Source of the DNA: an uncultured Anaerolineales bacterium
GTDB taxonomy: Bacteria; Chloroflexota; Anaerolineae; Anaerolineales; UBA11858
DNA length: 64,000 bases
Direction of reading: 5' to 3'
Assembly: GCA_964603385.1 (NCBI GenBank)
Contig: CAZRUS010000009.1
Coordinates: 9,279-73,278 of the forward strand
Positions within the stretch are counted from its first letter, which is position 1. Every line of letters starts with the position of its first letter. The translations under genes and the position numbers were made by a program. Below the pieces are notes generated by a model. That model was not told the DNA's origin. It saw only the letters and a program-made list of their open reading frames with translations, and did no database searches. Shown here piece by piece: positions 8,490-61,348 of the stretch.

Positions 8490-8687
8490 ATGGCTTACAG
8501 TTATACAAACTCAAAAGGAAAGACCTACTACCTGCACGGAAAGACCCGCACCCTGAAGAGTGGGAAAAAATCAACCCTGTATTATTTCGCCAAAGAAATC
8601 AAAGATGAAGCTCTGGACAGCGTGCCGATGGGTTACATGGTTTCTGAAAGCAAGAACGGACTGCCCGTACTGAAGAAAAACCAGTAA
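8490..8687 (+). CDS. Small basic conserved hypothetical protein (65 aa)
   Basis: Strong SD aaggaga at 8479-8485. Sequence MAYSYTNSKGKTYYLH...TLYYFAK...GY.V.ES.NGLPVLKK is rich in Lys and aromatic residues. Confidence 0.8.
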   Translation: MAYSYTNSKGKTYYLHGKTRTLKSGKKSTLYYFAKEIKDEALDSVPMGYMVSESKNGLPVLKKNQ

Positions 8688-8835
8688 CGCAGCATCCTCT
8701 CCGGGAGAGTCACAACCGGAAAGAAAATCCGGCAGCTTTCTAACATCCGGGGAATATGCATCCGCCCAACAACAGCAAAGCCTGTTGAAGAATCACCAAA
8801 AATCGACAAACCGTTCAGCACACAACGAAGATCCT

Positions 8836-8864
8836 GATCCCCCCCATGAATAACCTGGGGGGAT
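8836..8864. terminator. Probable bidirectional intrinsic terminator
   Basis: 10-bp stem gatcccccca/tggggggatc between convergent genes, followed by 'ctttgtt'. Confidence 0.7.
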
Positions 8865-8878
8865 CCTTTGTTAACAGA

Positions 8879-9454: not shown

Positions 9455-9471
9455 CAGAAAACAGCCCTAGA

Positions 9472-29255: not shown

Positions 29256-29267
29256 ACCATCCACCTG

Positions 29268-31243: not shown

Positions 31244-31339
31244 TGCCTTTCTCCCAAATTTTCCTGATCTGCTCTCTGTTCTGAGCTTTTTTAAAAGCTC
31301 ATCCTCTCAGCTCCCTGGACTGCCTGGAATTCTGGACCG

Positions 31340-32020
31340 TTACGGGGAGATCCGCACCAGAATCTGAGCGGTTGCGCTGGCACCCAGCACGCTTTTCTCC
31401 TCCCGACCCTGAATCTGCAGATGCAGGGTGTCATCGTAGGGAGAAAAATCCAGCACCAGGAACTCCGCTTCCGGCACCAGACCTTTCTCCGCCAGATAGC
31501 GGAGAAAGCCCGGATCATCGTCCTGCACAGAATGAATGGTCCCCCGCTTTCCCGGGGGGACATCATGCAGATATAGAGTATCCTCATCCGGCATCTCGAG
31601 AGACCGGGTGGGGATCGGTTTTCCGTGCAGTCCCCGCTGGGGATGCCCCAGCACCTCGGCCAGCCGGTCTTCAAACACCTCGGAGATGACATGTTCCAGA
31701 CGGTCAGCCTCTTCATGCACCTGGTCCCAGGTATACCCCAGATACTGATGTAAAAAGAGCTCCAGCAGGCGGTGGTGGCGGATGACCTCCAGTGCGATCC
31801 GGCGTCCCTGGGCTGTCAGGGCCGCTCCCCGGTGCTTGCGGTAATCCACCAGCGGCGTTTGCTCGCCAGCCAGCCGCTGCAGCATATCGGTCACCGAGGC
31901 CGGGCTGATGTTCAGCTCCGCGGCAATCTCACCGGTGCTGGCGCGCTCAGCCTCTGCGGTGAGCTGATAGATAATTTTCAGATAATCCTCAATCGTTTCC
32001 GAAAATCCGGTCTGTCTCAT
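31340..32020 (-). CDS. DtxR/MntR/IdeR family metal-dependent repressor
   Basis: EDYLKIIY, SPASVTDML, RHHRLLELFL, HEEADRLEHVIS and a C-terminal SH3/FeoA-like domain. Confidence 0.93.
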   Translation of the reverse strand: MRQTGFSETIEDYLKIIYQLTAEAERASTGEIAAELNISPASVTDMLQRLAGEQTPLVDYRKHRGAALTAQGRRIALEVIRHHRLLELFLHQYLGYTWDQVHEEADRLEHVISEVFEDRLAEVLGHPQRGLHGKPIPTRSLEMPDEDTLYLHDVPPGKRGTIHSVQDDDPGFLRYLAEKGLVPEAEFLVLDFSPYDDTLHLQIQGREEKSVLGASATAQILVRISP

Positions 32021-43337: not shown

Positions 43338-43513
43338 ATCGATCCCCTCAGGTTCCTGATCAGCAGGAACTCCTTGTTCATGTTACCTTAACTCACTCAA
43401 TTTCCTCCGCCAAGTAGGGGAAATCACCGGGCCGGCGTACCATTTATCACAATCTTCCTGTGGTGCCTGGCACTCACTGGAAAGATGAAATTATGCTATA
43501 CTAAATCTGAACT

Positions 43514-43765
43514 ATGAACCGGAAAACATGGGATCCGTTGGTCAAAACACTGCGGAAACTGCAGCTGCATGAATTCACAGCGGCCTTTTTAGAGGCACTG
43601 GGTCCCGTCAATGTGCTCATCGCCCAGATGATTTATGTCAGTGAACCGGTGCTGTCCCTTTTTGTGCCGCCGGAACAGTCCCAGGATTTTGCCACCACCC
43701 TGGAGGATCCCCAGGATACAGCTCTCTTGATCGATGCCCTGAGGACCAGCTCGCCGAAATCATAA
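43514..43765 (+). CDS. Small hypothetical protein, probable first gene of the GlmL-like operon
   Basis: 83-aa ORF with an amphipathic/hydrophobic middle. TGCTATACT -10 at ~43494-43502. Lies 20 nt before the next gene. Confidence 0.7.
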   Translation: MNRKTWDPLVKTLRKLQLHEFTAAFLEALGPVNVLIAQMIYVSEPVLSLFVPPEQSQDFATTLEDPQDTALLIDALRTSSPKS

Positions 43766-43785
43766 TCGGTGGGAGGAGCGTCATT

Positions 43786-44568
43786 TTGTCAGCAACAGGT
43801 TTTACCGGGATCGTCGTCATCCTCCTTTTTTTGGGATTGATGATCTTTTTCTATTTTATCCGCGAGGATCGAGAAGAAGATTCCCTGCGGGAAATCCCGG
43901 GCTACAAGAAGATATCTGAGCAGATCAACCAGGCTGTCGAAGACGGAACACAGCTGCACATCTCCCTGGGAAGGGCGGGTATTAACGGTCCAGAATCTGC
44001 TGCCGCCCTGGCCGGTCTCTCGATCCTTCAACAGGTGATTCAGAAATCATCGGTTTGTGATTATCCCCCGCTGGCCACCACCGGGGAAGCGACCATTTCC
44101 ATCCTCGCTCAGGACACCATCAAAGGCACATCCAAGGCCATTAAAGTTGGCCAACACGACCGCCTTTCTTATGGGGAACTGGTGGGCTTAACACCGTTCT
44201 CTTATGCCGCCGGCACCCTGACCACCATCCGGGATGAGAATGTTTCCGCCAATGTATTCACCGGCTGGTTCGGCAGCGAGACCATCTGGCTAACCACTGC
44301 CGGTGAGCGTCAGAGCTCCCCCACCATCGCCGGTACCGGCCAGCTGCCCGCCCAGGCAGTGATGTATGCCTCTGCTTCTCAACCCTTGATTGGCGAAGAG
44401 CTGTATGCCGGAGGCGCTTACCTGGGTGCGGGAAAACTGCACCGGGCGGGTGTGACCACCCAGGATGTATTTCGCTGGATCATCATTGCCCTGATTCTGG
44501 GTGGAGTCCTGCTGAACATCCTCGGGCTGGATCGATTCCTGGAAAGTATTCTGGCAGGTTCATTGTGA
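43786..44568 (+). CDS. Conserved membrane protein (DUF6754-like)
   Basis: TTG start with SD ggagg, N- and C-terminal TMs, and LREIPGY..I...I.QAVEDG..LHISLG. Family name is from recollection and was not searched. Confidence 0.7.
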   Translation: MSATGFTGIVVILLFLGLMIFFYFIREDREEDSLREIPGYKKISEQINQAVEDGTQLHISLGRAGINGPESAAALAGLSILQQVIQKSSVCDYPPLATTGEATISILAQDTIKGTSKAIKVGQHDRLSYGELVGLTPFSYAAGTLTTIRDENVSANVFTGWFGSETIWLTTAGERQSSPTIAGTGQLPAQAVMYASASQPLIGEELYAGGAYLGAGKLHRAGVTTQDVFRWIIIALILGGVLLNILGLDRFLESILAGSL

Positions 44569-45209
44569 ACATCAAGATTAAAGCACCGGTCTCCACAGCG
44601 ATCGCCATCGGGGTTGGCATTGTTGTTCTGGCTGGCTATTTCATCCCTTCCATCATTAATATTCGCTATGCCCTGCTGCGGACCGGGCTGGTGCTCTCAG
44701 CTGTGGCACTGCTGGTAGGCATCATTAATCTAATCGTTGTGCACCTGAGAAAAATCGGTTCTGACAGCGAAAACAGCGGCTACAGTCTCATCCTGGTCAT
44801 CTCCCTGGTGGTCACTCTGATAATTGGGATCACCGACATGTTCCAAACGTATATGTTCGGGCAGCCAAACTTCCGCGTAACCAGCTGGGTGTTCAATTAC
44901 ATCCACCTGCCCATAGAGATCAGCCTGATGGCGGTGACCACGATCAGTCTGACCTATGCCGCTGCCACCATCCTGCGGAAAAGAATGGATCTGTATTCGA
45001 TGATATTTTATTTGGTTCTTATTCTGGTGCTGTTGGGCTCCTTCTCTATTCCGCCAGCGACCAGTCCCCTGCTGGCTGGTGTACGCAACTGGCTGATTCA
45101 GGTTCCGGCGATGGGGGGTGCCCGGGGACTGCTGCTGGGAATTGCCCTGGGAACGATAGCCACCGGGTTGAGAATACTGACAGGGACAGACCGTCCTTAT
45201 GGGGGATAA
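44565..45209 (+). CDS. Hypothetical polytopic membrane protein (~6 TM)
   Basis: GTGA overlap with the previous gene. C-terminal W...VPAMGGARGLLLGIALG.IA.GLRIL.G.DRPY. Confidence 0.8.
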   Translation: MNIKIKAPVSTAIAIGVGIVVLAGYFIPSIINIRYALLRTGLVLSAVALLVGIINLIVVHLRKIGSDSENSGYSLILVISLVVTLIIGITDMFQTYMFGQPNFRVTSWVFNYIHLPIEISLMAVTTISLTYAAATILRKRMDLYSMIFYLVLILVLLGSFSIPPATSPLLAGVRNWLIQVPAMGGARGLLLGIALGTIATGLRILTGTDRPYGG

Positions 45210-45212
45210 CAG

Positions 45213-47276
45213 ATGACTGAGATCCGCTGCCCTGTCTGCGGAAGGCCAAATTCTGAATTCAGAGAGTCCTGCGAATTCTGTGGGGCCTCTCTGGAAACGC
45301 CGGATGCTGCAATTTACGGCCAGCGGCTGTCCAGTTTTCCAGAAGAAGAAGCAGATCAGCCTGCCGAAGAACAGCTTCCCCCCACCCCGGAAGAAGAGCC
45401 TGCCCTCCCTGCTCCGCTGCCGGAGGATCAGGTCCCCGGGGAAGAGCCGGAGGACCAGGTTGGATGGCTGGATATGCTGGGAGAGGACCGCGATCAAGGG
45501 CCCAGAGATGACCTCTTCTCCGCTGAAGAGCCCCCAGCTCCCCCGCCGGAGGCGCCCCGAAGACAAGAAAAACCTGAAACGGATTGGCTGGAGAGGATCA
45601 AAAGGCTCGACCAGAGCAGTGAGCAAGTCGATGACGATTCCTCCTTCCCGGATTGGCTGGCAGTGGCCGGCGGCGAGCAAAAAAGCGCAGAAGAACAGAC
45701 GGCCGAACCATCCCCGCCGCCAGACGATGAACTTCCGGACTGGCTGCAGATGGATGACGAGGATGAGCTCCTCAACGAATTCTTGAAGCAAAAATCCCTT
45801 CAGGATGCGGAATACGGGATGCGCAGGGAGGCAGCAGAAGAAACCCCGGAGCCGGAGCCTCCCCAGGAGGAGCCTGAAGAACCACCGAAGTTCCCCTCCT
45901 GGGCCAGCGATGAAGACCGGGAATCTGCCCGGCAGGTGCCGGACGAACTGCGCTTCCTGGCGGGGGAAATGGAGGATGAGGGGGAGGAAGGCGGTCCCGC
46001 AGTCGATCCTTTCCAAATCGAAGAAGAGGACATGCTGGATGATCTTTTTGAAGAGGAGCTGCCCGACTGGCTGACCAGCGCCTCAAGCCAGGAGGTTAAT
46101 CTACCGGAGGAGGACCTCGCCCAGGCAGAACTGCCCGGTTGGGTGGAAGCGATGAGACCGGTGGTGGAATCTGCGGAAGCGCTGGAATATGAAGATGAGG
46201 ATGAATATATCGAGAATTACGGCCCGCTGGCCGGTATTCCCAGCATCCTGCCGGCAGAAGCAGAAACCCAGCTGGATCCAGACTCACCTTCTACTCAAAA
46301 ACTTGACCTGGTCGTGACCAAAACCCAGCAGGAATATGTCGGGTTGCTTCAGCAGATGATCGCTGCTGAAGGCAAGACCAAAACAATCCAAAAACCTGCG
46401 CCAATCGCTACTCAGCGCATGCTTCGCTGGCTGATCGCACTGATCCTGATCATCACCGTGGGTGGATCGATCATCTTTGGCGGACCCGTTGAAATGCAAG
46501 ACCCTCCCCCTGATCAAAACAGCCAGCTCGGTTTCGTCTCCCTGTATGAAATTATCGGGAATTTAGAAGCGGAAGACCCTGTGCTGCTGGCCTTTGACTA
46601 TCTCCCAGCATCGGCTGGAGAAATGAACACCGCAGCAGCCCCGGTGATCAGCCACTTGATGGAGCAGGGTACTTACCTGTCCCTGATCTCCACAAAACCC
46701 ACCGGACCAGCCCTGGGGGAATATTTTCTGCGCTCCACCCAGAGTGCATTTGAGTATCGCTCCAGCCAGCAGTATGTCAACCTGGGCTACCTTCCCGGTG
46801 AGGCAGCCGGGCTGCTGAGCTTTGTCAGGGCTCCAAAACAGATCATTCCCCTGGCTTATGACGGATCCAATGCCTGGGGAGCTCCCCCTTTGGTTGCGGT
46901 GGAAAGATTAGCAGATTTCGAAACCGTTCTGGTGATCACCGACGATCCCAATTCAGCAAAAATCTGGATTGAACAGGTAGAGCCCTACCTGCTCAATACC
47001 CCGCTGGTGATGATCATCAGCGCCCAGGCAGAACCGCTGGTGCAGCCCTATTACCAATCCAACCCCCAGCCGGTGGATGGGTACGCCGCCGGCATCATCG
47101 ACAGCATGAATTACGAGCGTTTGAACAGCAGCCCAGGGTCCGCCCATGCCATTTGGCTTCCCTTTAACATTGGGATCGTTATTGGCGCTGGAACCATCTT
47201 CATCGGCGGCATGGCCAACGGTATTCTGGCCCTCTTCACCCAGCACCGCACCCGCGAACGAGGAGACAGCCAGTGA
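45213..47276 (+). CDS. Zinc-ribbon + acidic low-complexity Trp-repeat region + TM + conserved alpha/beta domain + TM
   Basis: CPVC-x9-CEFC, ~380 aa Glu/Asp/Pro-rich region with PDWL-type repeats, a TM, LLAFDY...QYVNLGYLPG, and a terminal TM. Confidence 0.8.
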   Translation: MTEIRCPVCGRPNSEFRESCEFCGASLETPDAAIYGQRLSSFPEEEADQPAEEQLPPTPEEEPALPAPLPEDQVPGEEPEDQVGWLDMLGEDRDQGPRDDLFSAEEPPAPPPEAPRRQEKPETDWLERIKRLDQSSEQVDDDSSFPDWLAVAGGEQKSAEEQTAEPSPPPDDELPDWLQMDDEDELLNEFLKQKSLQDAEYGMRREAAEETPEPEPPQEEPEEPPKFPSWASDEDRESARQVPDELRFLAGEMEDEGEEGGPAVDPFQIEEEDMLDDLFEEELPDWLTSASSQEVNLPEEDLAQAELPGWVEAMRPVVESAEALEYEDEDEYIENYGPLAGIPSILPAEAETQLDPDSPSTQKLDLVVTKTQQEYVGLLQQMIAAEGKTKTIQKPAPIATQRMLRWLIALILIITVGGSIIFGGPVEMQDPPPDQNSQLGFVSLYEIIGNLEAEDPVLLAFDYLPASAGEMNTAAAPVISHLMEQGTYLSLISTKPTGPALGEYFLRSTQSAFEYRSSQQYVNLGYLPGEAAGLLSFVRAPKQIIPLAYDGSNAWGAPPLVAVERLADFETVLVITDDPNSAKIWIEQVEPYLLNTPLVMIISAQAEPLVQPYYQSNPQPVDGYAAGIIDSMNYERLNSSPGSAHAIWLPFNIGIVIGAGTIFIGGMANGILALFTQHRTRERGDSQ

Positions 47277-47977
47277 ACTTTGCAGCTCTTTCCCTGGTGG
47301 ATTTCATAGGGTTCTCACTGGGCTTTCTGCTCACCATCCTGGTCTTCAGTTATCTGCTGGGAGATAACCCCTTCTTCCGGCTGGCTATCCATATTTTCAT
47401 CGGTGTTTCGGCTGCCTATGCAGCCATCATTACAGTAAATAACGTCCTCATCCCCCGCTTAATCACGCCGCTTTTTCAGGGCAGCAGCGGAGAACGGCTG
47501 TTATCTATCCTGCTAATCATCCCCAGCCTGTTTTTACTGACCAAAGCAACCCCGCTGCGGAAAGCCGGCAACTGGACGGTTGCCATCCTGGTGGGTATTG
47601 GCTCCGCCACCGCTATCGGCGGAGCGGTCACCGGAACCCTCTTCCCCCAGATCCTGGGAACCATCAATGCGGTAGATCCCGGAGCCAGATCAACCCTGGT
47701 GAATCCCTGGATGGCCACACTCAATGGAGCTGTGATAGTATTGGGTACAGTTACCACCTTGATCTATTTCCATTTCGGGATTCGGGTCAGACCCGGTCAG
47801 CCCGACCAGCGCCCAGCGCTGATTGAGCAGATCAGCCGGATCGGTCAGATCTTTTTGGCAGTCACCTTTGGGGCCCTTTTTGCCGGCGTTTATCTGGCTG
47901 CTCTTTCTGCCTTCGTGGAACGATTGACATTTTTATGGGACTTCCTTAACAGCATGGGAGTCCAGCTTTTCTCCTGA
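47273..47977 (+). CDS. Hypothetical polytopic membrane protein (~6-7 TM)
   Basis: GTGA overlap. LTILVFSYLLGDNPFFRLA.HIFIGVSA.Y, TL.YFHF and FGALFAG..LAAL..FVERL. Confidence 0.8.
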   Translation: MNFAALSLVDFIGFSLGFLLTILVFSYLLGDNPFFRLAIHIFIGVSAAYAAIITVNNVLIPRLITPLFQGSSGERLLSILLIIPSLFLLTKATPLRKAGNWTVAILVGIGSATAIGGAVTGTLFPQILGTINAVDPGARSTLVNPWMATLNGAVIVLGTVTTLIYFHFGIRVRPGQPDQRPALIEQISRIGQIFLAVTFGALFAGVYLAALSAFVERLTFLWDFLNSMGVQLFS

Positions 47978-47979
47978 CT

Positions 47980-49740
47980 ATGAACACATCAAGCCAAGCA
48001 GCGAAATCCCTTCTGGCCATTGACATCGGCAGTTCCCTCACCCGGGTGCTGTTTTTTGATGTGGTCAATGGACGCTTCCGTTTTATCGGCAGGGGATCGG
48101 CCCCCACAACAGCGGGCGCACCGATCTATGATGCCGCAGAGGGCATCTGGCGGGCCATTGAAGAGCTCCAGCTGATCACCGAGCGGACTTTTCTCAGCAA
48201 GGATGAAGGGGTAATCATCCCCAGCACCCCGGAAAATGAAGGTGTGGACATGATGGTCGCCACCATGTCAGCCGGCGATCCTTTGAAAGTGATCACGGTA
48301 GGGCTGCTGGATGACGTTTCTCTGAAAACAGCCCGACACCTTGCTGAGACCACCTATGCCAGCGTGGTGGATGAGATTTCCCTTAACGATCACCGCAGCC
48401 CCTCCGACCGCATCAACCTGATTACCACCGTCCGGCCGGATTTGATCATCATGGCCGGTGGGACCAACGGGGGAGCCACCCAGGCAACGCTGAACATGCT
48501 GGAGATGGTCGGTCTGGCCAGCTATTTTATTGAAAAAAACCACAAACCTCATGTCCTTTATGTGGGGAACGAGCAGCTTCACGATGAAGTGAAGTCCAGT
48601 TTGGAGAACATCAGCAATCTGCACCTGGCGGCCAACATTCAGCCGGTGCTTGAGGAAGAGCAGCTCTACCCAGCTCAGAAAAAACTCAAATCCATCTTCA
48701 ATGAGATCAGAAAGCAGCAGTCGGCAGGTGTCCGGGAGCTGCTCTCCTGGGCGAATGGGCATTTCGCTTCCTCTGCTTCCGGTTTTGGTCGTTTGATCCG
48801 CTTCCTGAGCCAGAAATTTGAGCCGGAAAAAGGGGTGCTGGGAATCGATATCGGTTCCTCCAACACCGTACTGGCGGCAGCGTTTTCAGGAGAAGAAACC
48901 CTGCGGGTGTTCCCCGATCTCGGGGTGGGAGCCAGTGCTGCCAGCGTGCTGGAGGAAACTTCCCTGCCGGAGATCACCCGCTGGCTGTCCCTGCCTTTGA
49001 GCGACCAGACAGTGGAGAATTATCTCTACCAGAAGACCGCCTACCCGGACAGCATCCCGGCAGAACCGGAACATTTAGCGATTGAACATGCCCTGGCCCG
49101 CCAGGTGCTCCGGCTGGCGGCCTCGCAAAGCATTCCCTGCTTCCCGAAAAGAACCCAACGGTCTGCGGATGGACTGCTGCCTGCCGTAGAGCCGATCATC
49201 GGCGCCGGGCGGGTGCTCACTCAGGCGCCAAACCGGGCTGACAGTCTGGGCATTCTCCTGGACGGCCTGCAGCCCACGGGGGTGACAACCCTGGCGCTGG
49301 ATCAGAATGATATCCTGGCCAGTCTGGGGGCGATTGCAGACCGAAATCCTCTGATGACCGTACAGATTGTCGAAACCAGCACCTTTCTCAATTTAGGCAC
49401 AATTATTGCACCCTTGGGAAGTGCCCGCCCGGGCACCACAATCCTGCGCATCCAGGTCAACCGCTCGGATGGGAGAACGGCCACCAGAGATATCAAATTT
49501 GGCTCGCTGGTGGTGCTGCCGGTAGAAACCGGTGAAAAGGTCACCCTCCACCTCCGTCCCCTGCATAAATTTGACGTTGGGATGGGGGGCCCGGGGAAAG
49601 CTGGCAAAGTGAATGCCGTCGGAGGAGCGCTGGGTGTGATCATCGATGCCAGAGGACGACCTCTGCGGTTCTTTGCTGACCGCGAAAAAAATATTAAACG
49701 GAACGCTGCCTGGAAAAAAAACCTGCAGAAATTTGAGTGA
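47980..49740 (+). CDS. GlmL/MutL (glutamate mutase L)-family ASKHA ATPase-fold protein
   Basis: Phosphate-1-like LAIDIGSSLT, APTT, PDLIIMAGGTNGG, phosphate-2-like LGIDIGSSNT, IIGAG.VL..AP and GGALGVIIDARGRP. Confidence 0.8.
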   Translation: MNTSSQAAKSLLAIDIGSSLTRVLFFDVVNGRFRFIGRGSAPTTAGAPIYDAAEGIWRAIEELQLITERTFLSKDEGVIIPSTPENEGVDMMVATMSAGDPLKVITVGLLDDVSLKTARHLAETTYASVVDEISLNDHRSPSDRINLITTVRPDLIIMAGGTNGGATQATLNMLEMVGLASYFIEKNHKPHVLYVGNEQLHDEVKSSLENISNLHLAANIQPVLEEEQLYPAQKKLKSIFNEIRKQQSAGVRELLSWANGHFASSASGFGRLIRFLSQKFEPEKGVLGIDIGSSNTVLAAAFSGEETLRVFPDLGVGASAASVLEETSLPEITRWLSLPLSDQTVENYLYQKTAYPDSIPAEPEHLAIEHALARQVLRLAASQSIPCFPKRTQRSADGLLPAVEPIIGAGRVLTQAPNRADSLGILLDGLQPTGVTTLALDQNDILASLGAIADRNPLMTVQIVETSTFLNLGTIIAPLGSARPGTTILRIQVNRSDGRTATRDIKFGSLVVLPVETGEKVTLHLRPLHKFDVGMGGPGKAGKVNAVGGALGVIIDARGRPLRFFADREKNIKRNAAWKKNLQKFE

Positions 49741-50837
49741 TCGGACTGGAAGGCGGTTCCGCAACAGCTATGATAACCTTACTCAAACATATTCACCCTC
49801 TGACCAACATCCGCCGGGAGCGGGTAGTCCCCGTTTCCGGGCAGGTGATCACACGGCGGATGCAGAAGGTCACCCCCACCGATATCATCGTCACCGCCCC
49901 CCTGGCCCCCCAATATCTGCTGCTGGATATCGCCCGGGGCCTGAATGTATCCCCTTCCCGGGCGGACGAGCTCCTTCAGAGGCAGCCTGGGGATGACCTC
50001 TCCAAAGGGGATGTCATTGCCGGACCGGTAGGTTTGTTCCAGCGGGTGATCCGGGCACCGGAGAATGGTGTCATACGCATCGCCGGGGAAGGAAAAGTGC
50101 TTTTCGAAATCTCTGCAGAGGAGTATGAGCTTCCTGCCGGCATGGACGGCACCATTACCGGCATCATCCCGGATCGAGGAGCAATCATCGAAACCAAAGG
50201 GGCCTTGATCCAGGGCATCTGGGGAAACGGCAGGATCGCCTATGGAGTTATTCAACCGATCAGCAAAGACCTCAGCAAAGAAGTGGAAAGTGAGCAAATT
50301 GACATCAGCTTTCGAGGGGCAATCATGGCTGCCGGGTCCTGCAGCAAAGCCGAAGTCCTGGAAGCCGCTGCTGCCGTGCCCATCAAAGGATTGATCCTGG
50401 GCAGTATGTCAGCCTCCCTGATTCCAACAGCCAAATCGATGAGCTATCCGATTATGGTGATTGATGGTTTTGGATCGATACCGATGAACAATCGGGCGGA
50501 GCAATTGCTGGTCACCAATCGGGACCGCAATATCGCTCTCAACGCCCAGCGCCATCAACCTTACCGGGGGAAATATCCAGAAGTAATCATCTCCCTGCCT
50601 ATTCAGAAAGATTTCAACACCCCGGTGGAAGCTGAGGAACTCATCCCTGGGCAGCGGGTGATTATGATCAGCGGGGCCAGGATTGGCAAAATTGGCACCG
50701 TAGCCAGACTGCTGGAAGGAAAATTTACCTTTGCCAGCGGAGTTGCTGCCCCGGCGATCGAGATCGAAATGGAAGGCGGGGCGCCGGTGATCGTTCCGGC
50801 AAACAACGTCAGACTATTGTCTTCACAGGAATATTAA
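49737..50837 (+). CDS. Conserved hypothetical soluble protein (barrel-sandwich-hybrid-like segment, C-terminal KOW/SH3-like domain)
   Basis: IRRERVVP..G.V, GDVIA...RAPENGVI, IETKGALIQGIWGNG, IDGFGSIPM and PGQRV...GKIGTV. GTG 49737 overlaps the previous stop; ATG 49770 is an alternative start. Confidence 0.75.
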   Translation: MIGLEGGSATAMITLLKHIHPLTNIRRERVVPVSGQVITRRMQKVTPTDIIVTAPLAPQYLLLDIARGLNVSPSRADELLQRQPGDDLSKGDVIAGPVGLFQRVIRAPENGVIRIAGEGKVLFEISAEEYELPAGMDGTITGIIPDRGAIIETKGALIQGIWGNGRIAYGVIQPISKDLSKEVESEQIDISFRGAIMAAGSCSKAEVLEAAAAVPIKGLILGSMSASLIPTAKSMSYPIMVIDGFGSIPMNNRAEQLLVTNRDRNIALNAQRHQPYRGKYPEVIISLPIQKDFNTPVEAEELIPGQRVIMISGARIGKIGTVARLLEGKFTFASGVAAPAIEIEMEGGAPVIVPANNVRLLSSQEY

Positions 50838-50887
50838 TTTCAATTGCGTTCTCTTCTACATAGACAGACAACACAGAGGAGTTGACC

Positions 50888-51496
50888 ATGGGCATGAGCG
50901 ATTTTGATGATTTTGAAGATTTGGAATTTGAGGACATGGATGCCGATCAAACCATCACCACCTCAGGAGGGTCCAACCGGACCTTTCTGGTGGTGGCAGG
51001 GATTCTCGGCGGCATTCTCCTGCTGGCCTTGATAGCCATCGCTGCTTATGCAGTAGTCATTTTGCCCGGCAGACAGACCGGAGAGCAAACTCAGGTGGCA
51101 GCGGTCAATGCAACCAATACGGCAATCGCTGAACAGAGTCAGCTGACCGCTATCGCCAAGCAGACCACCGCAACCCCCACGGTCACCAACACACTTCCTC
51201 CCACTGAAACCCCTGTTCCCACAGCAACGGAAACGGCCACCCCGGTTGTGGCGCCGACCAACACACCGGAGGTGGATACCGCCACCCCTGATCCAGCTAC
51301 CCAGACGGTTGCGGCACTGCTCACCCAGCAGGCGGGCGATGAAGGGGGCGGAGCAGGCACTCCGATTGCCACAGCGACTGCGCTGCCGGACACCGGCCTC
51401 GGGGATGATTTTGGCGTACCCGGCCTGCTCCTGGGTGCCGCCGTCCTGGTAGTTGTCATTATTCTCAGCCGGCGGCTGCGCTCATCCAGCACCTGA
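50888..51496 (+). CDS. Thr/Pro-rich surface protein with N-terminal TM and C-terminal LPDTG sorting-signal-like tail
   Basis: Acidic N-terminus, TM, Thr-rich linker, LPDTG (51383-51397), hydrophobic helix and SRRLR. SD agagga. Confidence 0.8.
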   Translation: MGMSDFDDFEDLEFEDMDADQTITTSGGSNRTFLVVAGILGGILLLALIAIAAYAVVILPGRQTGEQTQVAAVNATNTAIAEQSQLTAIAKQTTATPTVTNTLPPTETPVPTATETATPVVAPTNTPEVDTATPDPATQTVAALLTQQAGDEGGGAGTPIATATALPDTGLGDDFGVPGLLLGAAVLVVVIILSRRLRSSST

Positions 51497-51530: not shown

Positions 51531-51572
51531 AAACAACCACAGCGAAGAAATCCATCTTCCCTGTGGTTGTTT
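51531..51572. terminator. Bidirectional intrinsic terminator
   Basis: 12-bp stem aaacaaccacag/ctgtggttgttt extended by gaaga/tcttc, between convergent genes. Confidence 0.8.
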
Positions 51573-51588: not shown

Positions 51589-53049
51589 TCAGGTCACTTG
51601 ATCCGCGACTTCCTCCCCATATCCAAGCAGCGCTTCCATGATCTCCTCACTGCGCCCTTCTGCATATAAACGCAGCACCGGCTCGGTGCCCGAAGGGCGG
51701 ATCAACAGCCAGGAATCGTCTTCCAGAATGTATTTCACCCCATCAGTGGTCATCATCTCGGCTACTTTGAGACCGGCAATCTCTGCCGGCGCCTGGTCCT
51801 TAAGATATCCAACCATGCGCTTTTTTTGAACGGGATACTGCAGGCGCTGGTCTTTGCGCTGATAGAATGCCGGGCCGACCCTGTCCAGCAAATCACTGAC
51901 CAGTTGATGGAGCGATTTCTGGGTGACAGCCACCATTTCCACCAGCAGCAGTCCCATCAGCACCCCATCTCCTTCGGGAATATGCCCCCGGAAAGAGATC
52001 CCCCCGGATTCCTCCCCTCCCAGCAGGATATCCTCCGAGAGCATGTGATCGGCAATGTGATTGAAACCCACCGGGGTTTCATAAACCGGCAGATCATATT
52101 CCCCTGCCAGCCGGTCAATCATCCGGGTGGTGGACACCGTGCGCACCACTGGTCCCTGCCAGCCCCGTTTTTCTACCAGATACTGCAAGGCCAGCGACAT
52201 TATCTTGTGAGGGTCAACATAGTTCCCCCGTTCATCCATCGCACCAATACGGTCTCCGTCCCCATCCAGGGCCAGACCCAGGGTGCCCATACCTGTGCTG
52301 ATGGCGCCAGCCAGGGCCCCCAGATGTTTCCCGATCGGCTCCGGGTGAGCACCACCGAACCCTGGATTCATCTCCCCCCGGATCTCCTGAACTTCACAGC
52401 CGGTTCCCTGTAGAATGCCTTTGATCACCCCACGACCCGAGCCGTGCATGGAGTCGACCACCACCTGGGGGGGATTTTCAGCGATGGCATCAAAATCAAT
52501 CAGTGTCCGCAGATGCTGATAGTAATCAGGGATGGGGTTAAAGCGGTGGATTAATCCGGAATCCACCGCCTGATTCCAATCCATCAGGTTGGGTCCCCGG
52601 CCGCGTTCCTGATTATCGTTGAGAAATATTTCTACCCGGCGGGAATGTTCCGGCGAGGCTGCACTCCCCGTGGGCGTTTTGATTTTAACGCCGTTATAGC
52701 GGGGGGCATTATGAGAGGCTGTGATCACAATGCCGCCGATCGCCTTCTGGTTTTTAACCGCATATGAAATTGCCGGGGTGGGGGCATCCGCCTGGGTGAG
52801 GTGGACCGTATACCCATTGGCTGCCAGAACCCGGGCCACATCCCGGGCAAAGCGGTCAGACAGAAAACGGGTATCAAAGCCGACCACAAAGCGGTTGGGG
52901 TCGGGATCAATTTTCAAAATGGATTCATCCACCCAGTGTCCTGAGCGAACTGCATCTGCGATCGCCTGGGTGACCAGTCTGAGATTATGAAAGGTAAAGG
53001 TGTCAGACATCACTGCCCGCCAGCCATCCGTGCCAAAACTGATCGGCAT
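51589..53049 (-). CDS. Phosphoglucomutase/phosphomannomutase family protein
   Basis: FGTDGWR, ITASHN (phospho-Ser), DGDGDR, GGEESGG and RPSGTEP. Confidence 0.95.
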   Translation of the reverse strand: MPISFGTDGWRAVMSDTFTFHNLRLVTQAIADAVRSGHWVDESILKIDPDPNRFVVGFDTRFLSDRFARDVARVLAANGYTVHLTQADAPTPAISYAVKNQKAIGGIVITASHNAPRYNGVKIKTPTGSAASPEHSRRVEIFLNDNQERGRGPNLMDWNQAVDSGLIHRFNPIPDYYQHLRTLIDFDAIAENPPQVVVDSMHGSGRGVIKGILQGTGCEVQEIRGEMNPGFGGAHPEPIGKHLGALAGAISTGMGTLGLALDGDGDRIGAMDERGNYVDPHKIMSLALQYLVEKRGWQGPVVRTVSTTRMIDRLAGEYDLPVYETPVGFNHIADHMLSEDILLGGEESGGISFRGHIPEGDGVLMGLLLVEMVAVTQKSLHQLVSDLLDRVGPAFYQRKDQRLQYPVQKKRMVGYLKDQAPAEIAGLKVAEMMTTDGVKYILEDDSWLLIRPSGTEPVLRLYAEGRSEEIMEALLGYGEEVADQVT

Positions 53050-53201
53050 ATTTCTTGCTCCTTTGTTCTCCGTAACGAACCGTACCTATTCTATCACCGA
53101 ACGACTCCAACGGGAGGAAGGGTCGTGACCCGTCCGGCTCTCCACTCCCGGCGTGGGAGTATGTTAAAATTCAGATACATTCAGGAATCAAACCACCATC
53201 T

Positions 53202-54839
53202 ATGGACTCAAAGACTATTTACGCGTTCCTGCGAGAGCATCCCATATTCAACCAGCTCAGCGATGAGGAGCTGGGGCAGATTCTTCCTCTCTTTCAGCCC
53301 ATCTCCCTGCAGAAAGGCGAGGTTCTCTTCCGGGCTGGTTTCCCAGGCCGGAATTTTTTCATCATCGTCTCGGGGGCCATGCTCCTGCTTCGGGAAGATC
53401 AACCTGCCAAGAAAGTGTATGCGCGCGAGCCTTTTGGCGAAGAGGAGCTTTTTGGGGAGGCTGTCCGGGAGCACACGGCCCAGGCGCTGGAAACCACCCG
53501 CCTCCTGGCGGTCAACCGACGCGGCTTCCTGGCGATATTAAATGCCTATCCGACGGTCAAGGCTAGGCTGCGGGCCCTCAGAAACAGCCTGCGACTGCGC
53601 GAAAAAACCGACTTTCCCTGGATCGGAGAGCGGGAACAGATCCGCTTCCTTGACCGTAAGCACATTCACCTGTTTTACCAGCAGATGGTTTTTCCGGTGC
53701 TCTTTCTGTCCATCGGTGTGCTTGGCGGGCTCTACCTCCAATTCAACCCGGTCATTTTCCTGCCCGTTCTCCTGTTGATATTTGGTCTCTGGACCTGGTG
53801 GCACTGGATGGATTGGGGGAATGATTTTTATCTGGTGACCACGGAACGGGTCGCCTGGGTAGAAAAGGTGCTCTGGCTGCACGACCAGCGCAGAGAAATT
53901 CCCCTGCAGTCCATCCTTTCTGTAAATCTCTCTTCCAATCAAGTACAGCGGGTGTTCGGTTATGGGGATGTCATCATCCGCACCTACACCGGGGATATGC
54001 CCATGCGCAACGCTTCCCATCCGAAGGTGCTGCTGGATCTGATCCTGGAAACTCAAAAGCTGACCCGGGAGCAAGCCCGGGAGACGGAACTGGACGAGAT
54101 TGGTGAAACCATCCGAACTCGTTTGAGGATGAGTGATGATCAGCGGGATCTGGAATCCAGCTCTGAGGTCCCTTCCCCTCCAGCCGGTCCGCAGCTGACA
54201 GAAACCATCACCCCGCTGCAGGAGTTCCTGAATCTCTTCCGGGCCCGATATGAGGTTAACGGTGTAATTACCTACCGCAAGCATAAGTTTATTCTCGTGA
54301 AGCAGTCCTGGTGGCTGCTGCTCCTGCTGGTGCTGCTGATCAGCGCTTTCTTTGCTCGCCTGGTCAATCTGCTGACTTTTCCCAGCCTGCCCTGGATCGG
54401 GCTGCTGATCGCTGTCAGCCTGCTCGGCCTGGGCTATGTTTTCGCCAATTGGGCCAATGATCGCTTTCAGATTACAGAGAAGCAGATCGTCGATCTGGAC
54501 CGCACCCCGCTGGGCCGGGAAACGAAGCGCTCAGCTCTGCTTGAAAACATCCTCAGCCTGGACTACCAGAGAAAAAATATCCTCCAGCGTCTGTTTGATT
54601 TCGGAACAGTGGCCATCAACGTCGGGGACATTCAGCTGGACTTTGAGAATGTCGCCCGACCGAAAGCCGTCCAGAATGAGATTTTCGAACGCTACAACAC
54701 AGCCATCAAAGAAAAGGAACGGGAGGAAGCGCAACGGCGCCGCGATGATATGGTAGAATTTCTTGCGGCTTACCATCAGGAAAATCAACCCGACGCCGGT
54801 GCCCTGGATGAATCCACTTCATCGGCACAGGAGCGCTGA
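53202..54839 (+). CDS. Cyclic-nucleotide-binding domain fused to two TM-hairpin + bPH_2 (YdbS/DUF304-like) units
   Basis: LQKGEVLFRAG...FFIIVSG...FGEEEL (cNMP-like), then TM pair + YLVTTERV...QRVFGYGDV, and a second TM pair + FQITEKQI...QRLFDFGTV. Confidence 0.8.
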   Translation: MDSKTIYAFLREHPIFNQLSDEELGQILPLFQPISLQKGEVLFRAGFPGRNFFIIVSGAMLLLREDQPAKKVYAREPFGEEELFGEAVREHTAQALETTRLLAVNRRGFLAILNAYPTVKARLRALRNSLRLREKTDFPWIGEREQIRFLDRKHIHLFYQQMVFPVLFLSIGVLGGLYLQFNPVIFLPVLLLIFGLWTWWHWMDWGNDFYLVTTERVAWVEKVLWLHDQRREIPLQSILSVNLSSNQVQRVFGYGDVIIRTYTGDMPMRNASHPKVLLDLILETQKLTREQARETELDEIGETIRTRLRMSDDQRDLESSSEVPSPPAGPQLTETITPLQEFLNLFRARYEVNGVITYRKHKFILVKQSWWLLLLLVLLISAFFARLVNLLTFPSLPWIGLLIAVSLLGLGYVFANWANDRFQITEKQIVDLDRTPLGRETKRSALLENILSLDYQRKNILQRLFDFGTVAINVGDIQLDFENVARPKAVQNEIFERYNTAIKEKEREEAQRRRDDMVEFLAAYHQENQPDAGALDESTSSAQER

Positions 54840-59838: not shown

Positions 59839-61344
59839 ATGACTCGTAGGCTATGGATGTTCATTGGTTGTCTGGTTATCATCCTCAGTGCATGCACAAA
59901 AACTGCCCACACTGCACCGTATATCAACTTCTCAAAAACCTATCGAAACACCGAAACAGCCCCTACCAGCGATCCCTATCTACCTCCGACCCGGCAGCCT
60001 GACCAGCCCATCCAGACCCCCACCCCGAATCGGCCCAAACCAGTGCCCACCCTGCGAACTCAGGATACAATCTATTACGTCCGGCAGGGGGACACTTTAA
60101 AATCCATTGCCCTTCGCTATCAACTGCTCCCCGAACAGATTATTGACGCCAATCAAATCACCAATCCGAATCTGATCTATGCCGGCCAGCAGCTGCTTCT
60201 GCCGGCCCCTGTTATCGGCAAAACAGGTCCCAGCTTTAAAATCATCCCCAATTCGGAGCTGGTTCTGGGACCCTACACTGTGCGGTTCAACCCCGCTTCC
60301 TTTATTGAAAATCAGGGCGGCCAACTGGCAGTCCATGAAGAGGAAGTTGAGGGGGAAATCGCCAGCGGTGCAGAGATCGTGGAACGGATCGCCTGGGACT
60401 ATTCGGTCAATCCCCGGCTGCTGCTGACCCTCATCGAGCATCAGGCAGGATGGGTGACCGGCGGCGGCAATCCGGATGCCCCTTACCCGCTGGGATTTCA
60501 GGAAGTCGGTTATGAGGGGTTGTACCGGCAGCTTTCCTGGGCTGCCAACGAACTCAACCGCGGATATTATCTCTGGAAAGCCAAAGCTGTTGGCAGCTGG
60601 ATCACCACAGACGGCGTGAATGTGCCCATTGACAGCACGATTAATGCCGGGACAGCCGGTCTGCAGCAGGTCTTCTCCCAGCTTCAGACTCATCAACAAT
60701 GGCTGAAAACCATGTCAGAAGACGGTCTGATCAACACCTACCAGCGCTTGTTTGGCTACCCGTTTGATTTCACTTTCAGCCCGCTGCTGCCGTCAGATCT
60801 GCAGCAGCCGAAATTGCAGCTTCCCTTTGAACCCGGGGTGACCTGGGCCTTCACCGGCGGCCCGCACGGCGGCTGGGGGAACGGTTCTGCCTGGGCAGCG
60901 CTGGACTTTGCTCCCCCGCCGGGGAACCAGGGCTGCACCCTTAGCAACGAATGGGTGGTGGCGGCGGCTGACGGCATGATTGTTCAATCTGACCGCGGGG
61001 CGGTGGTTCAAAGCCTGGACGGAGACCCTTATATGCAGACCGGTTGGTCCCTGCTGTACTTGCACATTGAAAGCCGGGACCGCGTCGAGGCCGGCACCTA
61101 CCTGTATGCAGGAGATCGAATTGGCCATCCCTCCTGTGAGGGCGGGATCTCCACCGGCACGCACCTCCATCTGGCGCGGCGGTATAATGGCGAATGGATT
61201 CCCGCTGACCAGCATATCCCCTTTAACCTGGAGGGCTGGATTTCTGGCAGTTCAGGCAGTGAATATCAGGGAACCCTGCACCGGGGTGGGACCACCCTTA
61301 AAGCTGATGATTATCTGACCGATAGCAACCAGATTACCCGCTGA
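59839..61344 (+). CDS. LysM lipoprotein with LasA-type (M23A) peptidase domain, copy 1
   Basis: Lipobox LSAC, LysM (YYVRQGDTL..IA), NPRLLLTLIE, H-x12-D (GPHGGWGNGSAWAALD) and CEGGISTGTHLH. Confidence 0.85.
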   Translation: MTRRLWMFIGCLVIILSACTKTAHTAPYINFSKTYRNTETAPTSDPYLPPTRQPDQPIQTPTPNRPKPVPTLRTQDTIYYVRQGDTLKSIALRYQLLPEQIIDANQITNPNLIYAGQQLLLPAPVIGKTGPSFKIIPNSELVLGPYTVRFNPASFIENQGGQLAVHEEEVEGEIASGAEIVERIAWDYSVNPRLLLTLIEHQAGWVTGGGNPDAPYPLGFQEVGYEGLYRQLSWAANELNRGYYLWKAKAVGSWITTDGVNVPIDSTINAGTAGLQQVFSQLQTHQQWLKTMSEDGLINTYQRLFGYPFDFTFSPLLPSDLQQPKLQLPFEPGVTWAFTGGPHGGWGNGSAWAALDFAPPPGNQGCTLSNEWVVAAADGMIVQSDRGAVVQSLDGDPYMQTGWSLLYLHIESRDRVEAGTYLYAGDRIGHPSCEGGISTGTHLHLARRYNGEWIPADQHIPFNLEGWISGSSGSEYQGTLHRGGTTLKADDYLTDSNQITR

Positions 61345-61348
61345 AAAC

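Follow-up and report, generated by a model that had tools for sequence, protein, structure and literature searches.

A conserved eight-gene operon of Anaerolineae and Caldilineae encoding an ASKHA protein, membrane proteins and an LPxTG-type protein: a candidate envelope-spanning complex

Described Systems and Their Likeness to the Operon

The ASKHA proteins PilM, FtsA, and ParM bind short peptides of their partners. In the PilM–PilN–PilO and GspL–GspM platforms of type IV pili and type II secretion, a cytoplasmic ASKHA protein is combined with small bitopic and polytopic membrane proteins, and in the FtsA–FtsN and MreB–RodZ–MreCD systems small polytopic proteins and bitopic proteins whose tail is cytoplasmic accompany an actin-fold protein. 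The diol/glycerol dehydratase reactivases DdrA/GdrA and EutA are ASKHA ATPases with inserted domains that serve as soluble partners of B12 enzymes. The GlmL proteins had been regarded in the initial annotation of this DNA as characterised reactivating factors; this premise goes beyond the evidence since, to our knowledge, the role of GlmL has been deduced only from the position of its gene.

The window, i.e., the whole 64-kb stretch of DNA analysed, belongs to an Anaerolineales bacterium and contains eight co-directional ORFs (g1–g8) on the plus strand at positions 43514–51496. The initial annotation had placed them at these coordinates, and the ORF list of the window contains all of them there. 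The composition of the operon resembles that of the pilus and secretion platforms, and PilM is the top, weak Foldseek match of the ASKHA protein g6 (5eoy, E = 6e-4). However, there is no sequence-family match, the model behind these hits is of low confidence and gives TM-scores below 0.2, the partners in the membrane are not related, and genes for a secretion ATPase, pilin, secretin, or PilC-like protein are absent. The wall-bearing, filamentous host also brings the FtsA–FtsN and MreB–RodZ–MreCD systems to mind, but homology was not detected; g6 has no amphipathic membrane-targeting helix and belongs to the hydantoinase/GlmL branch and not to the actin/Hsp70 branch. The matches of g6 to the reactivases (2d0o and 1nbw) have a TM-score of about 0.1, and no B12 enzyme of this kind is encoded here.

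The cluster was thought to be undescribed, and indeed no papers on it and no solved structures of the operon proteins were found; in public records, the genes appear under the names ‘glutamate mutase L’, ‘DUF6754’, or ‘hypothetical’. Apart from g6, the operon proteins have no characterised relatives.

Conservation and Boundaries of the Operon

The neighbourhood of the g6 gene was compared in 79 loci, in which the identity of the ASKHA protein to that of the window is 32–80%. Genes g2–g7 have the same order and strand in 46 of the 47 related genome loci with enough flanking sequence, and the order is kept down to 32% identity, Caldilineaceae included; g6 is flanked by g4, g5, and g7 in 74–77 of the 79 loci. 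Conservation of order, strand, and junctions over this range excludes chance. This survey supports the earlier proposal that the g6 gene is linked to membrane protein genes rather than to a B12 mutase. In the 28 most distant loci, the surrounding ±10 kb contain no further gene family that recurs. The suggestion that similar clusters occur in other anaerobes was not borne out: all relatives found belong to Chloroflexota (Anaerolineae/Caldilineae), and they include MAGs assigned to Caldilinea aerophila, which is an aerobe. The g7 family comprises 2961 clusters at 50% identity, and a family of this size indicates that the system is widespread and under selection. Operon conservation as such would also fit a pathway or a transporter and not only a stable complex.

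The genes are tightly packed. Of the reported junctions, two GTGA overlaps (at 44565 and 47273) and the short gaps of 3 nt at 45209/45213 and 2 nt at 47977/47980 were confirmed, whereas the third overlap reported by the initial annotation, at 49737, probably does not mark the true start of g7. Among orthologous loci, a −4 overlap was found at the g2–g3 junction in 41/54 cases and a −4/−1 overlap at the g4–g5 junction in 35/60 cases; the gaps are 2–3 nt between g3 and g4, 3–5 nt between g5 and g6, and typically about 30 nt between g6 and g7.

Upstream of g1, the extended −10 promoter element TGcTATACT is located on the plus strand at positions 43494–43502, in agreement with the −10 box noted earlier near 43497. 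It is the core of the block GAAAnTATGCTATACTAA, which is at least 90% conserved in 26 orthologous loci within otherwise variable intergenic DNA; a generic sigma-70 scan did not call this element. The element ends 11 nt upstream of the g1 start codon, so that the transcript would be nearly leaderless. On the other side of the operon, a hairpin of 12 + 5 bp (51531–51572) is located between the convergent g8 and phosphoglucomutase genes. Its fold of −24.4 kcal/mol (z = −5.5 against shuffled sequences) is consistent with the strong terminator assigned to this place. The hairpin is likely a bidirectional terminator; given the A-run upstream of it, it should be at least equally good for the minus-strand gene.

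Membrane Proteins

Six of the eight operon proteins have at least one clear predicted TM segment, and hydropathy predicts approximately 18 TM helices for one complete set of subunits. Judging by the charge distribution, the g4 arm, the acidic tail of g8, and the DUF6754 domain are cytoplasmic; the g8 stalk and the g4 domain are outside. Pfam matches, TM predictions, and AF2/Foldseek results agree with the initial descriptions of the proteins.

The small g1 protein (43514–43765; 83 aa) has one weakly hydrophobic segment and the conserved motif LEA-GP...AQ..Y...P-L. It has no match in Pfam, and a tblastn search revealed its orthologs upstream of g2 in 44 loci. The g2 protein (43786–44568) belongs to the DUF6754 family (PF20539, E = 1e-25). 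Its topology is predicted from hydropathy as N-out, with TM segments at residues 7–25 and 228–246 and a cytoplasmic domain of about 200 aa; basic residues follow TM1 in its orthologs, and no relative was found in the PDB. Both g3 (44565–45209; 214 aa), which overlaps g2 by 4 nt, and g5 (47273–47977; 234 aa), which overlaps g4 by 4 nt, have approximately six TM segments, contain conserved polar or charged residues, and have no match in Pfam or PDB. The conserved C-terminal motif of g3 is G-R-L-G-DRPY, and the conserved motifs of g5 are SY..GDN..F-LA-H-F-G and GGA..GT..PQ. When compared with each other, g3 and g5 turned out to be two unrelated 6-TM proteins and not paralogs.

Scaffold Protein with Tandem Tryptophan Motifs

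The g4 protein (45213–47276) consists of an N-terminal zinc ribbon (45213–45302), which gives a weak match in the window protein and a clear one among its orthologs (best E = 7e-11), an acidic disordered region that bears the E-phi-P-D-W-L motifs (about 45333–46202), TM1 (46422–46478), a conserved extracytoplasmic alpha/beta-like domain (46479–47156), and TM2 (47157–47222). No relative of the C-terminal domain was found in Pfam or PDB. The length of g4 orthologs varies from 404 to 2661 aa, and the motif is present in 4 to more than 60 tandem copies. It is a true repeat: 984 copies were counted in the window protein and 62 orthologs (63 sequences in total). Their median spacing is 27 aa, and P occupies position −2 in 71%, D position −1 in 53%, and L position +1 in 68% of cases.

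The WH2-repeat nucleators Spire, Cobl, and VopL/VopF offer an analogy, as they also have short amphipathic motifs every 25–35 residues or so in disordered regions and act beside an actin-fold protein. However, there is no sequence relationship, and the g4 motif is Trp-centred and acidic; by this analogy, it may be considered a candidate binding motif.

ASKHA Protein

The g6 protein (47980–49740) belongs to the ASKHA superfamily and to the broad GlmL/MutL family of Pfam (PF13941, E = 8e-67, 226 bits). Its core (48013–49377; residues 12–466) aligns with the whole Pfam model, and it shares with GlmL/MutL a flavodoxin-like insert as well as the phosphate motifs of ASKHA proteins. The first phosphate motif, D15/G17/T21, is conserved in 78/78 orthologs; D290/G292 do not vary in the orthologs of the Anaerolineales type, and at this place a DIGS motif is found in the distant clade. 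In contrast to GlmL/MutL, g6 has an extra C-terminal domain of about 120 aa (49378–49737), conserved in the ortholog alignment with the motifs NLGTxIAPxG and IDARGRPL, and it belongs to an operon of membrane proteins and is never located beside a mutase. Moreover, it fails the cut-offs of all the curated NCBIfam families NF040745, NF040744, and TIGR01319 (107/475 bits for GlmL, 81/600 for Or-4, and 69/204 for TIGR01319). No B12 mutase or B12-binding domain was detected in the approximately 45 other ORFs scanned in the window, as the initial annotation had maintained, and no mutase gene was found within ±10 kb of the operon in the 79 loci. Very probably, the operon does not serve as an accessory system of a glutamate mutase.

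AF2 modelled g6 poorly (pLDDT 56.6), so the Pfam match is the main ground for assigning the fold class. In this low-confidence model, the flavodoxin-like insert matches the B12-binding-domain folds 2yxb and 4r3u_D (TM ~0.6). The C-terminal helix is no more amphipathic than control segments, and thus g6 has no evident membrane anchor of the FtsA/MreB type.

Soluble Protein and LPxTG-Type Protein

The soluble g7 protein (49770–50837; 355 aa) consists of a barrel-sandwich hybrid, a swivelling beta/beta/alpha, an alpha/beta, and a KOW/SH3-like domain. Its translation probably starts at ATG 49770 and not at GTG 49737: most orthologs are 351–352 aa long with the first residue matching ATG 49770, and JGI independently called a protein of 355 aa on a contig with a 97% identical ASKHA protein. 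The AF2 model (pLDDT 86) has domain-level Foldseek matches to NusG/Spt5 KOW, RraA (2pcn), and AF0055 (2hi6), and the orthologs match Biotin_lipoyl, RnfC_N, and KOW of Pfam.

The g8 protein (50888–51496) has an acidic N-terminal tail, a TM segment, a Thr/Pro-rich stalk, an LPDTG motif (51383–51397), a second hydrophobic segment, and an RRLR tail. The ATG at 50888, located 6 nt after GAGGAG, is a more likely start than TTG 50882. The LPxTG-like motif, the hydrophobic stretch, and the RRLR tail are kept in 50/53 orthologs, and a conserved gene occupies the g8 position in 17 distant loci, in most of which g7 is followed by a VPETG/VPNTG equivalent. One ortholog matches Gram_pos_anchor of Pfam (E = 2.7e-4); the g8 of the window is below the threshold of the Pfam LPXTG model, and a sortase gene was not seen among those of the window. 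The set of C-terminal features, i.e., LPDTG, the hydrophobic segment, RRLR, and a Pro/Thr-rich region of the wall-spanning type, is shared with the sortase-anchored surface proteins of monoderm bacteria. However, g8 has no passenger domain, and its N-terminus, with a long acidic cytoplasmic tail, resembles a TM anchor and not a cleavable signal peptide. With such an architecture, g8 would bridge the membrane and the wall rather than be displayed on the surface.

Alternative Explanations

The public name ‘glutamate mutase L’ and the full-length PF13941 match would fit a GlmL-type accessory or reactivating factor acting on a B12 or radical enzyme encoded elsewhere, with unrelated neighbours, and the resemblance of the insert to B12-binding folds points the same way. 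This seems quite improbable: the scores are 4- to 7-fold below the GlmL/Or-4 equivalog cut-offs and 3-fold below that of TIGR01319, mutases are absent from the window and from the surveyed flanks, and the protein has an additional C-terminal domain and, in all lineages, shows translational coupling with membrane genes. It is still harder to believe that the genes are mere syntenic neighbours with independent functions. The flanking genes are indeed housekeeping ones (fumarase, tRNA synthetases, PGM, def, and recF), and their synteny is partly kept among close relatives; however, it disappears upstream below about 50% identity and downstream in Caldilineae-type loci, while g2–g7 stay together with their 4-nt overlaps.

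Two other explanations, both unlikely and to a similar degree, concern the function of the genes taken together. Possibly, g6 is a new polymer-forming bacterial actin-like protein, and the g4 motifs, acting like tandem WH2 repeats, bind several g6 protomers and nucleate or cluster them at the membrane, with g8 passing position or force to the wall. The spacing of about 27 aa and the high copy number recall, by analogy, the tandem actin-binding peptides that Spire, Cobl, and VopL carry; the complexes PilM:PilN (5eou) and FtsA:FtsN (7q6i) are in the low-confidence Foldseek list of g6, and the host lineage is filamentous. On the other hand, the GlmL family is nearest to the hydantoinase/reactivase branch, in which polymerisation is not known, g6 contains the flavodoxin-like insert, and the Trp motif might just as well be a ligand of the KOW/SH3-like domain in g7. 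Alternatively, g3, g5, and the DUF6754 protein may form a translocation path for a solute, a lipid-linked precursor, or a protein, energised or gated by g6. The number of TM helices and the conserved polar and charged residues of g3 and g5 are consistent with this, as is the convergent phosphoglucomutase/phosphomannomutase gene that adjoins the operon in 48 loci, even without upstream synteny; but this gene is on the opposite strand, and its linkage vanishes in Caldilineae-type loci. Moreover, no similarity to transporter families was found in Pfam, NCBIfam, or PDB sequences, and we know of no ASKHA-powered transporter.

Proposed Complex and Its Role

We favour, with slightly better than even confidence, the explanation that the eight genes are one operon for a single undescribed envelope-spanning complex, tethered to the wall and equipped with an ASKHA NTPase. 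The operon would have been inherited vertically across Anaerolineae/Caldilineae. As the predicted topology suggests, the unrelated 6-TM proteins g3 and g5, together with g2 and the scaffold g4, may form a membrane platform, in which the cytoplasmic domain of g2 would be held between its two TM segments, and g4 would expose its conserved alpha/beta-like domain outside and the arm with the zinc ribbon and acidic motifs on the cytoplasmic side. Both g6 and g7 presumably dock onto this platform from the cytoplasm, the likeliest sites being the tandem Trp motifs of g4 or the conserved tails that g3 and g8 have in the cytoplasm. The g6 protein would supply nucleotide-dependent switching or work, and g8, with its conserved LPxTG-type signal, may tether the complex to the cell wall. 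Judging by this architecture only, our best guess is that the complex serves envelope organisation or maintenance, i.e., wall growth or septum or filament integrity, in filamentous Chloroflexota.

Organization of the Eight-Gene Cluster

The eight co-directional genes initially annotated at 43514–51496 are present on the plus strand of the window, with two start codons corrected. The small g1 (43514–43765, 83 aa) is followed by g2 (43786–44568, 260 aa), g3 (44565–45209, 214 aa), g4 (45213–47276, 687 aa), g5 (47273–47977, 234 aa), g6 (47980–49740, 586 aa), g7 (49737 or 49770 to 50837), and g8 (50882 or 50888 to 51496). Pfam families were found for g2 (DUF6754, E = 1e-25) and g6 (MutL, PF13941, E = 8e-67 over the full length), and neither Pfam nor NCBIfam gave a significant family for the g1, g3, g4, g5, g7, and g8 proteins of the window. 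The GTGA overlap at 49737, first taken as the start of g7, is probably wrong, since the orthologs are mostly 351–352 aa in length and begin at the residue matching ATG 49770, the gap between g6 and g7 in orthologous loci is typically ~30 nt, and in a contig with a 97%-identical ASKHA protein, a JGI gene call makes g7 355 aa long; the start is probably ATG 49770. The g8 gene probably starts at ATG 50888, which is preceded by GAGGAG.

The tight spacing of the genes recurs among the orthologous loci. A 4-nt overlap joins g2 and g3 in 41 of 54 loci, and g4 and g5 overlap by 4 or 1 nt in 35 of 60; gaps of 2–3 nt separate g3 from g4, and gaps of 3–5 nt separate g5 from g6. The −10 element proposed upstream of g1 lies in the block GAAAnTATGCTATACTAA, a sequence with at least 90% conservation across 26 related loci, set in otherwise variable intergenic DNA. 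The 3′ end of this block is 11 nt upstream of the g1 ATG, which suggests a near-leaderless g1 mRNA. The hairpin that follows g8 (51531–51572) is indeed strong (−24.4 kcal/mol, z = −5.5).

Another conserved block of non-coding DNA, with a consensus of about cAGTAtGAGAAATAATC, can be noted at 43419–43436 of the window and at equivalent positions in the related loci L003–L024. It is located ~80 nt upstream of g1, inside the divergent fumarase/g1 intergenic region, and may serve as an operator or as the fumarase promoter. Searches of the whole window for Rfam families (riboswitch or leader RNA) and tRNAs gave no match.

Distribution and Synteny

The closest homologs of g6 and g7 are from Anaerolineales MAGs. 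A scan of one genome per species revealed 79 loci, in which the identity of g6 ranges from 80% down to 32%. All of them belong to Chloroflexota, except for one MAG that is probably mis-binned, and they fall into two NCBI classes, Anaerolineae and Caldilineae, with representatives in Anaerolineales, unclassified Anaerolineae, and Caldilineaceae, including Caldilinea aerophila MAGs. No relatives from other phyla were found among the best 80–120 matches listed. The earlier suggestion that such clusters occur in other anaerobes gives way to a distribution in Chloroflexota (Anaerolineae/Caldilineae). The g7 profile retrieves 2961 clusters at 50% identity among 1.84 billion representatives, 942 of them at E <= 1e-30; the first of these counts indicates that the system is common in environmental data. 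The exceptional contig, L010 (CAXMRF010000005.1), is labelled "uncultured Nitrosomonadaceae bacterium"; it carries a complete Anaerolineales-type cluster with 62% ASKHA identity and Anaerolineales flanking synteny, and was probably mis-binned.

When the eight window proteins were compared with the 79 loci by tblastn, gene order and strand were identical everywhere, and g4, g5, and g7 were detected in 74, 75, and 77 loci, respectively. The g2–g7 set is complete in 46 of the 47 loci with enough flanking sequence on both sides; the sole exception, L066, has a very long g4 that reaches the edge of the fetched DNA. The flanks decay, whereas the g2–g7 cluster persists: the upstream neighbourhood of fumarase and an MFS transporter is lost below ~50% identity, and the convergent downstream phosphoglucomutase is lost in Caldilineae-type loci. 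When all ORFs within 10 kb on either side of the 28 most distant loci were clustered, no family beyond g2–g8 recurred.

The L066 locus (Anaerolineales bacterium HSG24) contains between g5 and g6 (7601–9939 of that locus) a gene encoding AAA-ATPase_like and PD-(D/E)XK (PDDEXK_9) domains and a 202-aa ORF. The pair has the appearance of a selfish element inserted into the operon; the interpretation of L066 as a different system was rejected, the apparent variant being a mobile-type insertion.

In the window, the cluster is followed at 51589–54839 by the convergent phosphoglucomutase/phosphomannomutase gene and a gene for a 545-aa membrane protein with cNMP-binding and bacterial PH domains. These two genes adjoin the cluster in 45–48 loci, even after the upstream synteny is lost, a linkage that may reflect either function or inertia.

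The ASKHA Protein g6

The g6 protein belongs to the broad MutL family and falls far short of the curated GlmL models. Its score against PF13941 is 226.3 bits (gathering cut-off 27; residues 12–466 aligned to model positions 2–448 of 450), and the ortholog from L066 scores 192 bits. It reaches 106.7 bits with the NCBIfam GlmL equivalog NF040745 (cut-off 475), 81.4 bits with the Or-4 model NF040744 (cut-off 600), and 69 bits with the TIGR01319 subfamily (cut-off 204). Both DxGxxT-type phosphate-binding motifs of the duplicated ASKHA halves are found in g6. The first, D15-x-G17-x3-T21, is at least 85% conserved in 78 orthologs; in the second, D290-x-G292 is invariant among Anaerolineales-type orthologs, and the consensus of the distant clade at this position is GVDIGSxST. 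Given the conservation of D15/G17/T21 and D290/G292, g6 fits a nucleotide-binding ASKHA protein.

At 586 aa, g6 exceeds the single-domain GlmL architecture of ~460 aa. The extra C-terminal domain of ~120 aa is conserved in all orthologs (NLGTxIAPxG ... FDxGxG ... GGxxGxxIDARGRPL ... W) and has no solved relative; a PDB search gave only a borderline match (2eis, E = 9e-4), which was not relied on. The AlphaFold2 model of g6 has a pLDDT of 56.6 with a disordered second half and is interpretable at most in its N-terminal half. The top Foldseek matches of this poor model are ASKHA proteins (PilM, Ppx/GppA, allose kinase, FtsA, and DdrA) at TM-scores of 0.1–0.2, and a flavodoxin-like insert (about residues 100–230) weakly resembles B12-binding-domain folds (TM ~0.6, in a low-confidence model).

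Neither g6 nor g7 contains a TM segment according to hydropathy. PF13941 is the only Pfam match of g6 at E <= 0.1, with no match to PilM_2, FtsA, or MreB_Mbl. An FtsA-like amphipathic C-terminal helix was considered and is unsupported: the hydrophobic moment of the C-terminal helix (0.445) is close to that of control segments (0.42).

The absence of a B12 mutase nearby, pointed out initially, holds for the ~45 other window ORFs scanned, none of which has a mutase or B12-binding Pfam match. Public records, including P0501, P0413, and others, as well as the L017 locus, name g6 orthologs "glutamate mutase L" or "methylaspartate mutase" and call the neighbours "hypothetical". These names are over-annotation from the broad Pfam/TIGR family.

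Predicted Membrane Partners and the Soluble Protein g7

Hydropathy agrees with the topology first assigned to the products. The g2 protein has two TMs around a ~200-aa domain and matches DUF6754 (PF20539) with 90.6 bits at a cut-off of 27 (residues 9–251 on 13–253 of 257); its L017 ortholog bears the NCBI name "DUF6754 domain-containing protein". Basic residues after TM1 in the orthologs place the conserved domain, by prediction, in the cytoplasm. The g3 and g5 proteins have about six TMs each and no Pfam match, either in the window or among orthologs. The C-terminus of g3 carries a conserved tail, G-R-L-G-DRPY, predicted to be cytoplasmic, and g5 contains the conserved motifs SY..GDN and GGA..GT..PQ. 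Paralogy of g3 and g5 was rejected together with that of seven other pairs (g2/g3, g2/g5, g6/g7, g1/g2, g4/g7, g4/g2, and g8/g2), as hhalign probabilities for all eight pairs were <=16% and involved TM segments only.

The g4 scaffold, the most unusual of the components, consists of a zinc ribbon, clear in the orthologs (best E = 7e-11), a region of ~290 aa with 33% Asp/Glu, a TM, a ~225-aa domain, and a second TM. From the charge distribution, the domain between the TMs is predicted to lie outside the cell; it shows alternating beta/alpha-like conserved blocks and has no Pfam or PDB relative. The acidic disordered arm varies between ~150 and ~1950 residues, which accounts for g4 ortholog lengths of 404–2661 aa. 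In 63 sequences (the window protein and 62 orthologs), the arms contain 984 Trp in 36,985 disordered residues. These Trp are surrounded by E/D at −4, L/I at −3, P at −2 (71%), D at −1 (53%), L at +1 (68%), and L at +4, and the median spacing of the motif is 27 residues.

The g4 arm shows a striking length polymorphism within one scaffold protein. The motif, E-phi-P-D-W-L, is present in 4–7 copies in the window lineage (45333–46202) versus 20–67 copies in Caldilineae-type orthologs of 1600–2660 aa; arm expansion was noted in L056, L058, L060, L062, L063, L065, and L068.

The AlphaFold2 model of g7 is confident (pLDDT 86) and comprises barrel-sandwich hybrid, swivelling beta/beta/alpha, alpha/beta, and KOW/SH3-like domains. 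Foldseek matches are at the domain level only (NusG/Spt5 KOW, RraA 2pcn, and AF0055 2hi6), and some orthologs match Pfam Biotin_lipoyl, RnfC_N, or KOW. No significant PDB relative was recovered by sequence or profile searches with g2, g3, g5, the g4 C-terminal domain, g6, or g7.

The Putative Surface Protein g8

The N-terminus of g8 consists of a 34-aa acidic segment and a hydrophobic stretch (>=19 aa) that resembles a TM anchor rather than a cleavable signal peptide. This TM is followed by a Thr/Pro-rich stretch, LPDTG, a hydrophobic segment, and RRLR. A [LV]PxTG-type motif with the hydrophobic segment and RRLR is present in 50 of 53 g8 orthologs. Among 17 distant loci with a conserved gene at the g8 position, most have a g8-like protein after g7, characterized by an acidic N-terminus, NR-F before the TM, a Pro/Thr-rich stalk, VPETG or VPNTG, a TM, and RRLR. 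The window g8 does not match Pfam Gram_pos_anchor or NCBIfam LPXTG at E <= 0.1; of seven g8 sequences compared with Pfam, a single ortholog matches the anchor model (E = 2.7e-4). The scan of window ORFs yielded no sortase. If processed by a sortase, g8 would bridge the membrane and the wall.

Other Features of the Window

The housekeeping genes of the window include recF, gidB/rsmG, def, ftsK, lgt, and lspA. At 5669–6846, plus-strand ORFs of 151, 204, and 185 aa overlap in three different frames; none has a Pfam match, and they may reflect a frameshift in one gene, a pseudogene, or misassembly. In the iron uptake locus at 27828–32020, FeoB is split into an N-terminal GTPase gene (304 aa) and a C-terminal membrane gene (478 aa), adjoined by two DtxR-type repressor/FeoA fusion proteins (354 and 226 aa). 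Two adjacent paralogous LysM and peptidase M23 proteins (501 and 533 aa) at 59839–62950 are likely peptidoglycan hydrolases. No tandem repeats were found in the 64-kb window.

Discussion

At the level of sequence comparison, g1–g8 are established as an operon that is inherited vertically, is translationally coupled, and has a conserved promoter of its own. In it, a GlmL-branch ASKHA protein is coupled to seven proteins, six of them predicted to be membrane-embedded. Portions of the products are predicted to lie on either side of the membrane, and g8 carries a wall-anchor signal. Comparative genomics supports the main proposal of the initial annotation: a conserved, undescribed membrane-associated system that has a GlmL-like ASKHA protein at its centre and no relation to B12 mutases. 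A mere synteny of independent genes is disfavoured, as the flanks decay while g2–g7 stay together. The conventional role of g6 as a mutase accessory is likewise disfavoured by the GlmL cut-off, neighbourhood, and architecture results: true GlmL is recognized by its curated HMM score, a mutase neighbourhood (glmS/glmE, oraSE, or kamDE), and a ~460-aa architecture, and g6 has none of these.

Within the reach of these tests, the operon fits no known kind of system, and the family memberships that hold are only those in the broad Pfam MutL family and DUF6754. PilMNO/GspLM, FtsA/FtsN, and MreB/RodZ/MreCD are functional analogies only, with no sequence-family match and weak structural matches, and g6 shows no evident amphipathic membrane helix. 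An Rnf/Nqr ion-translocating complex was considered in view of the RnfC_N matches and two 6-TM subunits and was rejected: g3 and g5 have no Pfam match and are not paralogs, g7 lacks Fe-S and flavin domains, and no NqrA or RnfC appears in its top 50 Foldseek matches. There was no credible PADLOC match to a defence system, and FcmB, a newly reported actin-like family, is ParM-derived and unrelated. Literature searches on the cluster, DUF6754, PF13941, TIGR01319, GlmL, ASKHA with glutamate mutase, and PDWL returned nothing relevant.

We infer that the products may assemble into one envelope-spanning complex, in which g6 with g7 would form a cytoplasmic nucleotide-dependent module, the tandem Trp motifs of the g4 arm would recruit soluble partners, and g8 would tether the assembly to peptidoglycan. 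A transporter and a cytoskeletal or nucleator mechanism are competing readings of the operon. The architecture and host biology allow a guess that its role is in envelope growth, septation, or filament integrity. A further proposal is a new cytoskeletal/envelope machine specific to filamentous Chloroflexota, in which g6, as a GlmL-branch actin-fold ATPase, is recruited in multiple copies, and possibly polymerised, by the g4 tandem motifs and coupled via g3/g5 and the DUF6754 protein to the extracytoplasmic domain, with a sortase-processed stalk covalently attached to peptidoglycan. We consider this proposal improbable; if true, it would describe an organiser of envelope growth or septation that is anchored in the wall, driven by an actin-fold protein, and unrelated to the MreB and FtsA systems.

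Operons of conserved hypothetical genes are frequent in phyla that have received little study, and this tempers the weight of the finding. Anaerolineae are among the most abundant filamentous bacteria of sediments, digesters, and activated sludge, and to our knowledge, the way they build their envelope and filaments is largely unknown. The class-wide eight-gene operon, with six genes in no described family, would constitute a new multi-protein system, and it reveals systematic mis-annotation as "glutamate mutase L" and even "methylaspartate mutase". For the broad GlmL/MutL family, it would add a second functional setting unconnected with B12. It offers two directly testable hypotheses: a tandem Trp-motif scaffold recruiting an actin-fold protein, and a protein with one end anchored in the membrane and the other linked to the wall by a sortase.
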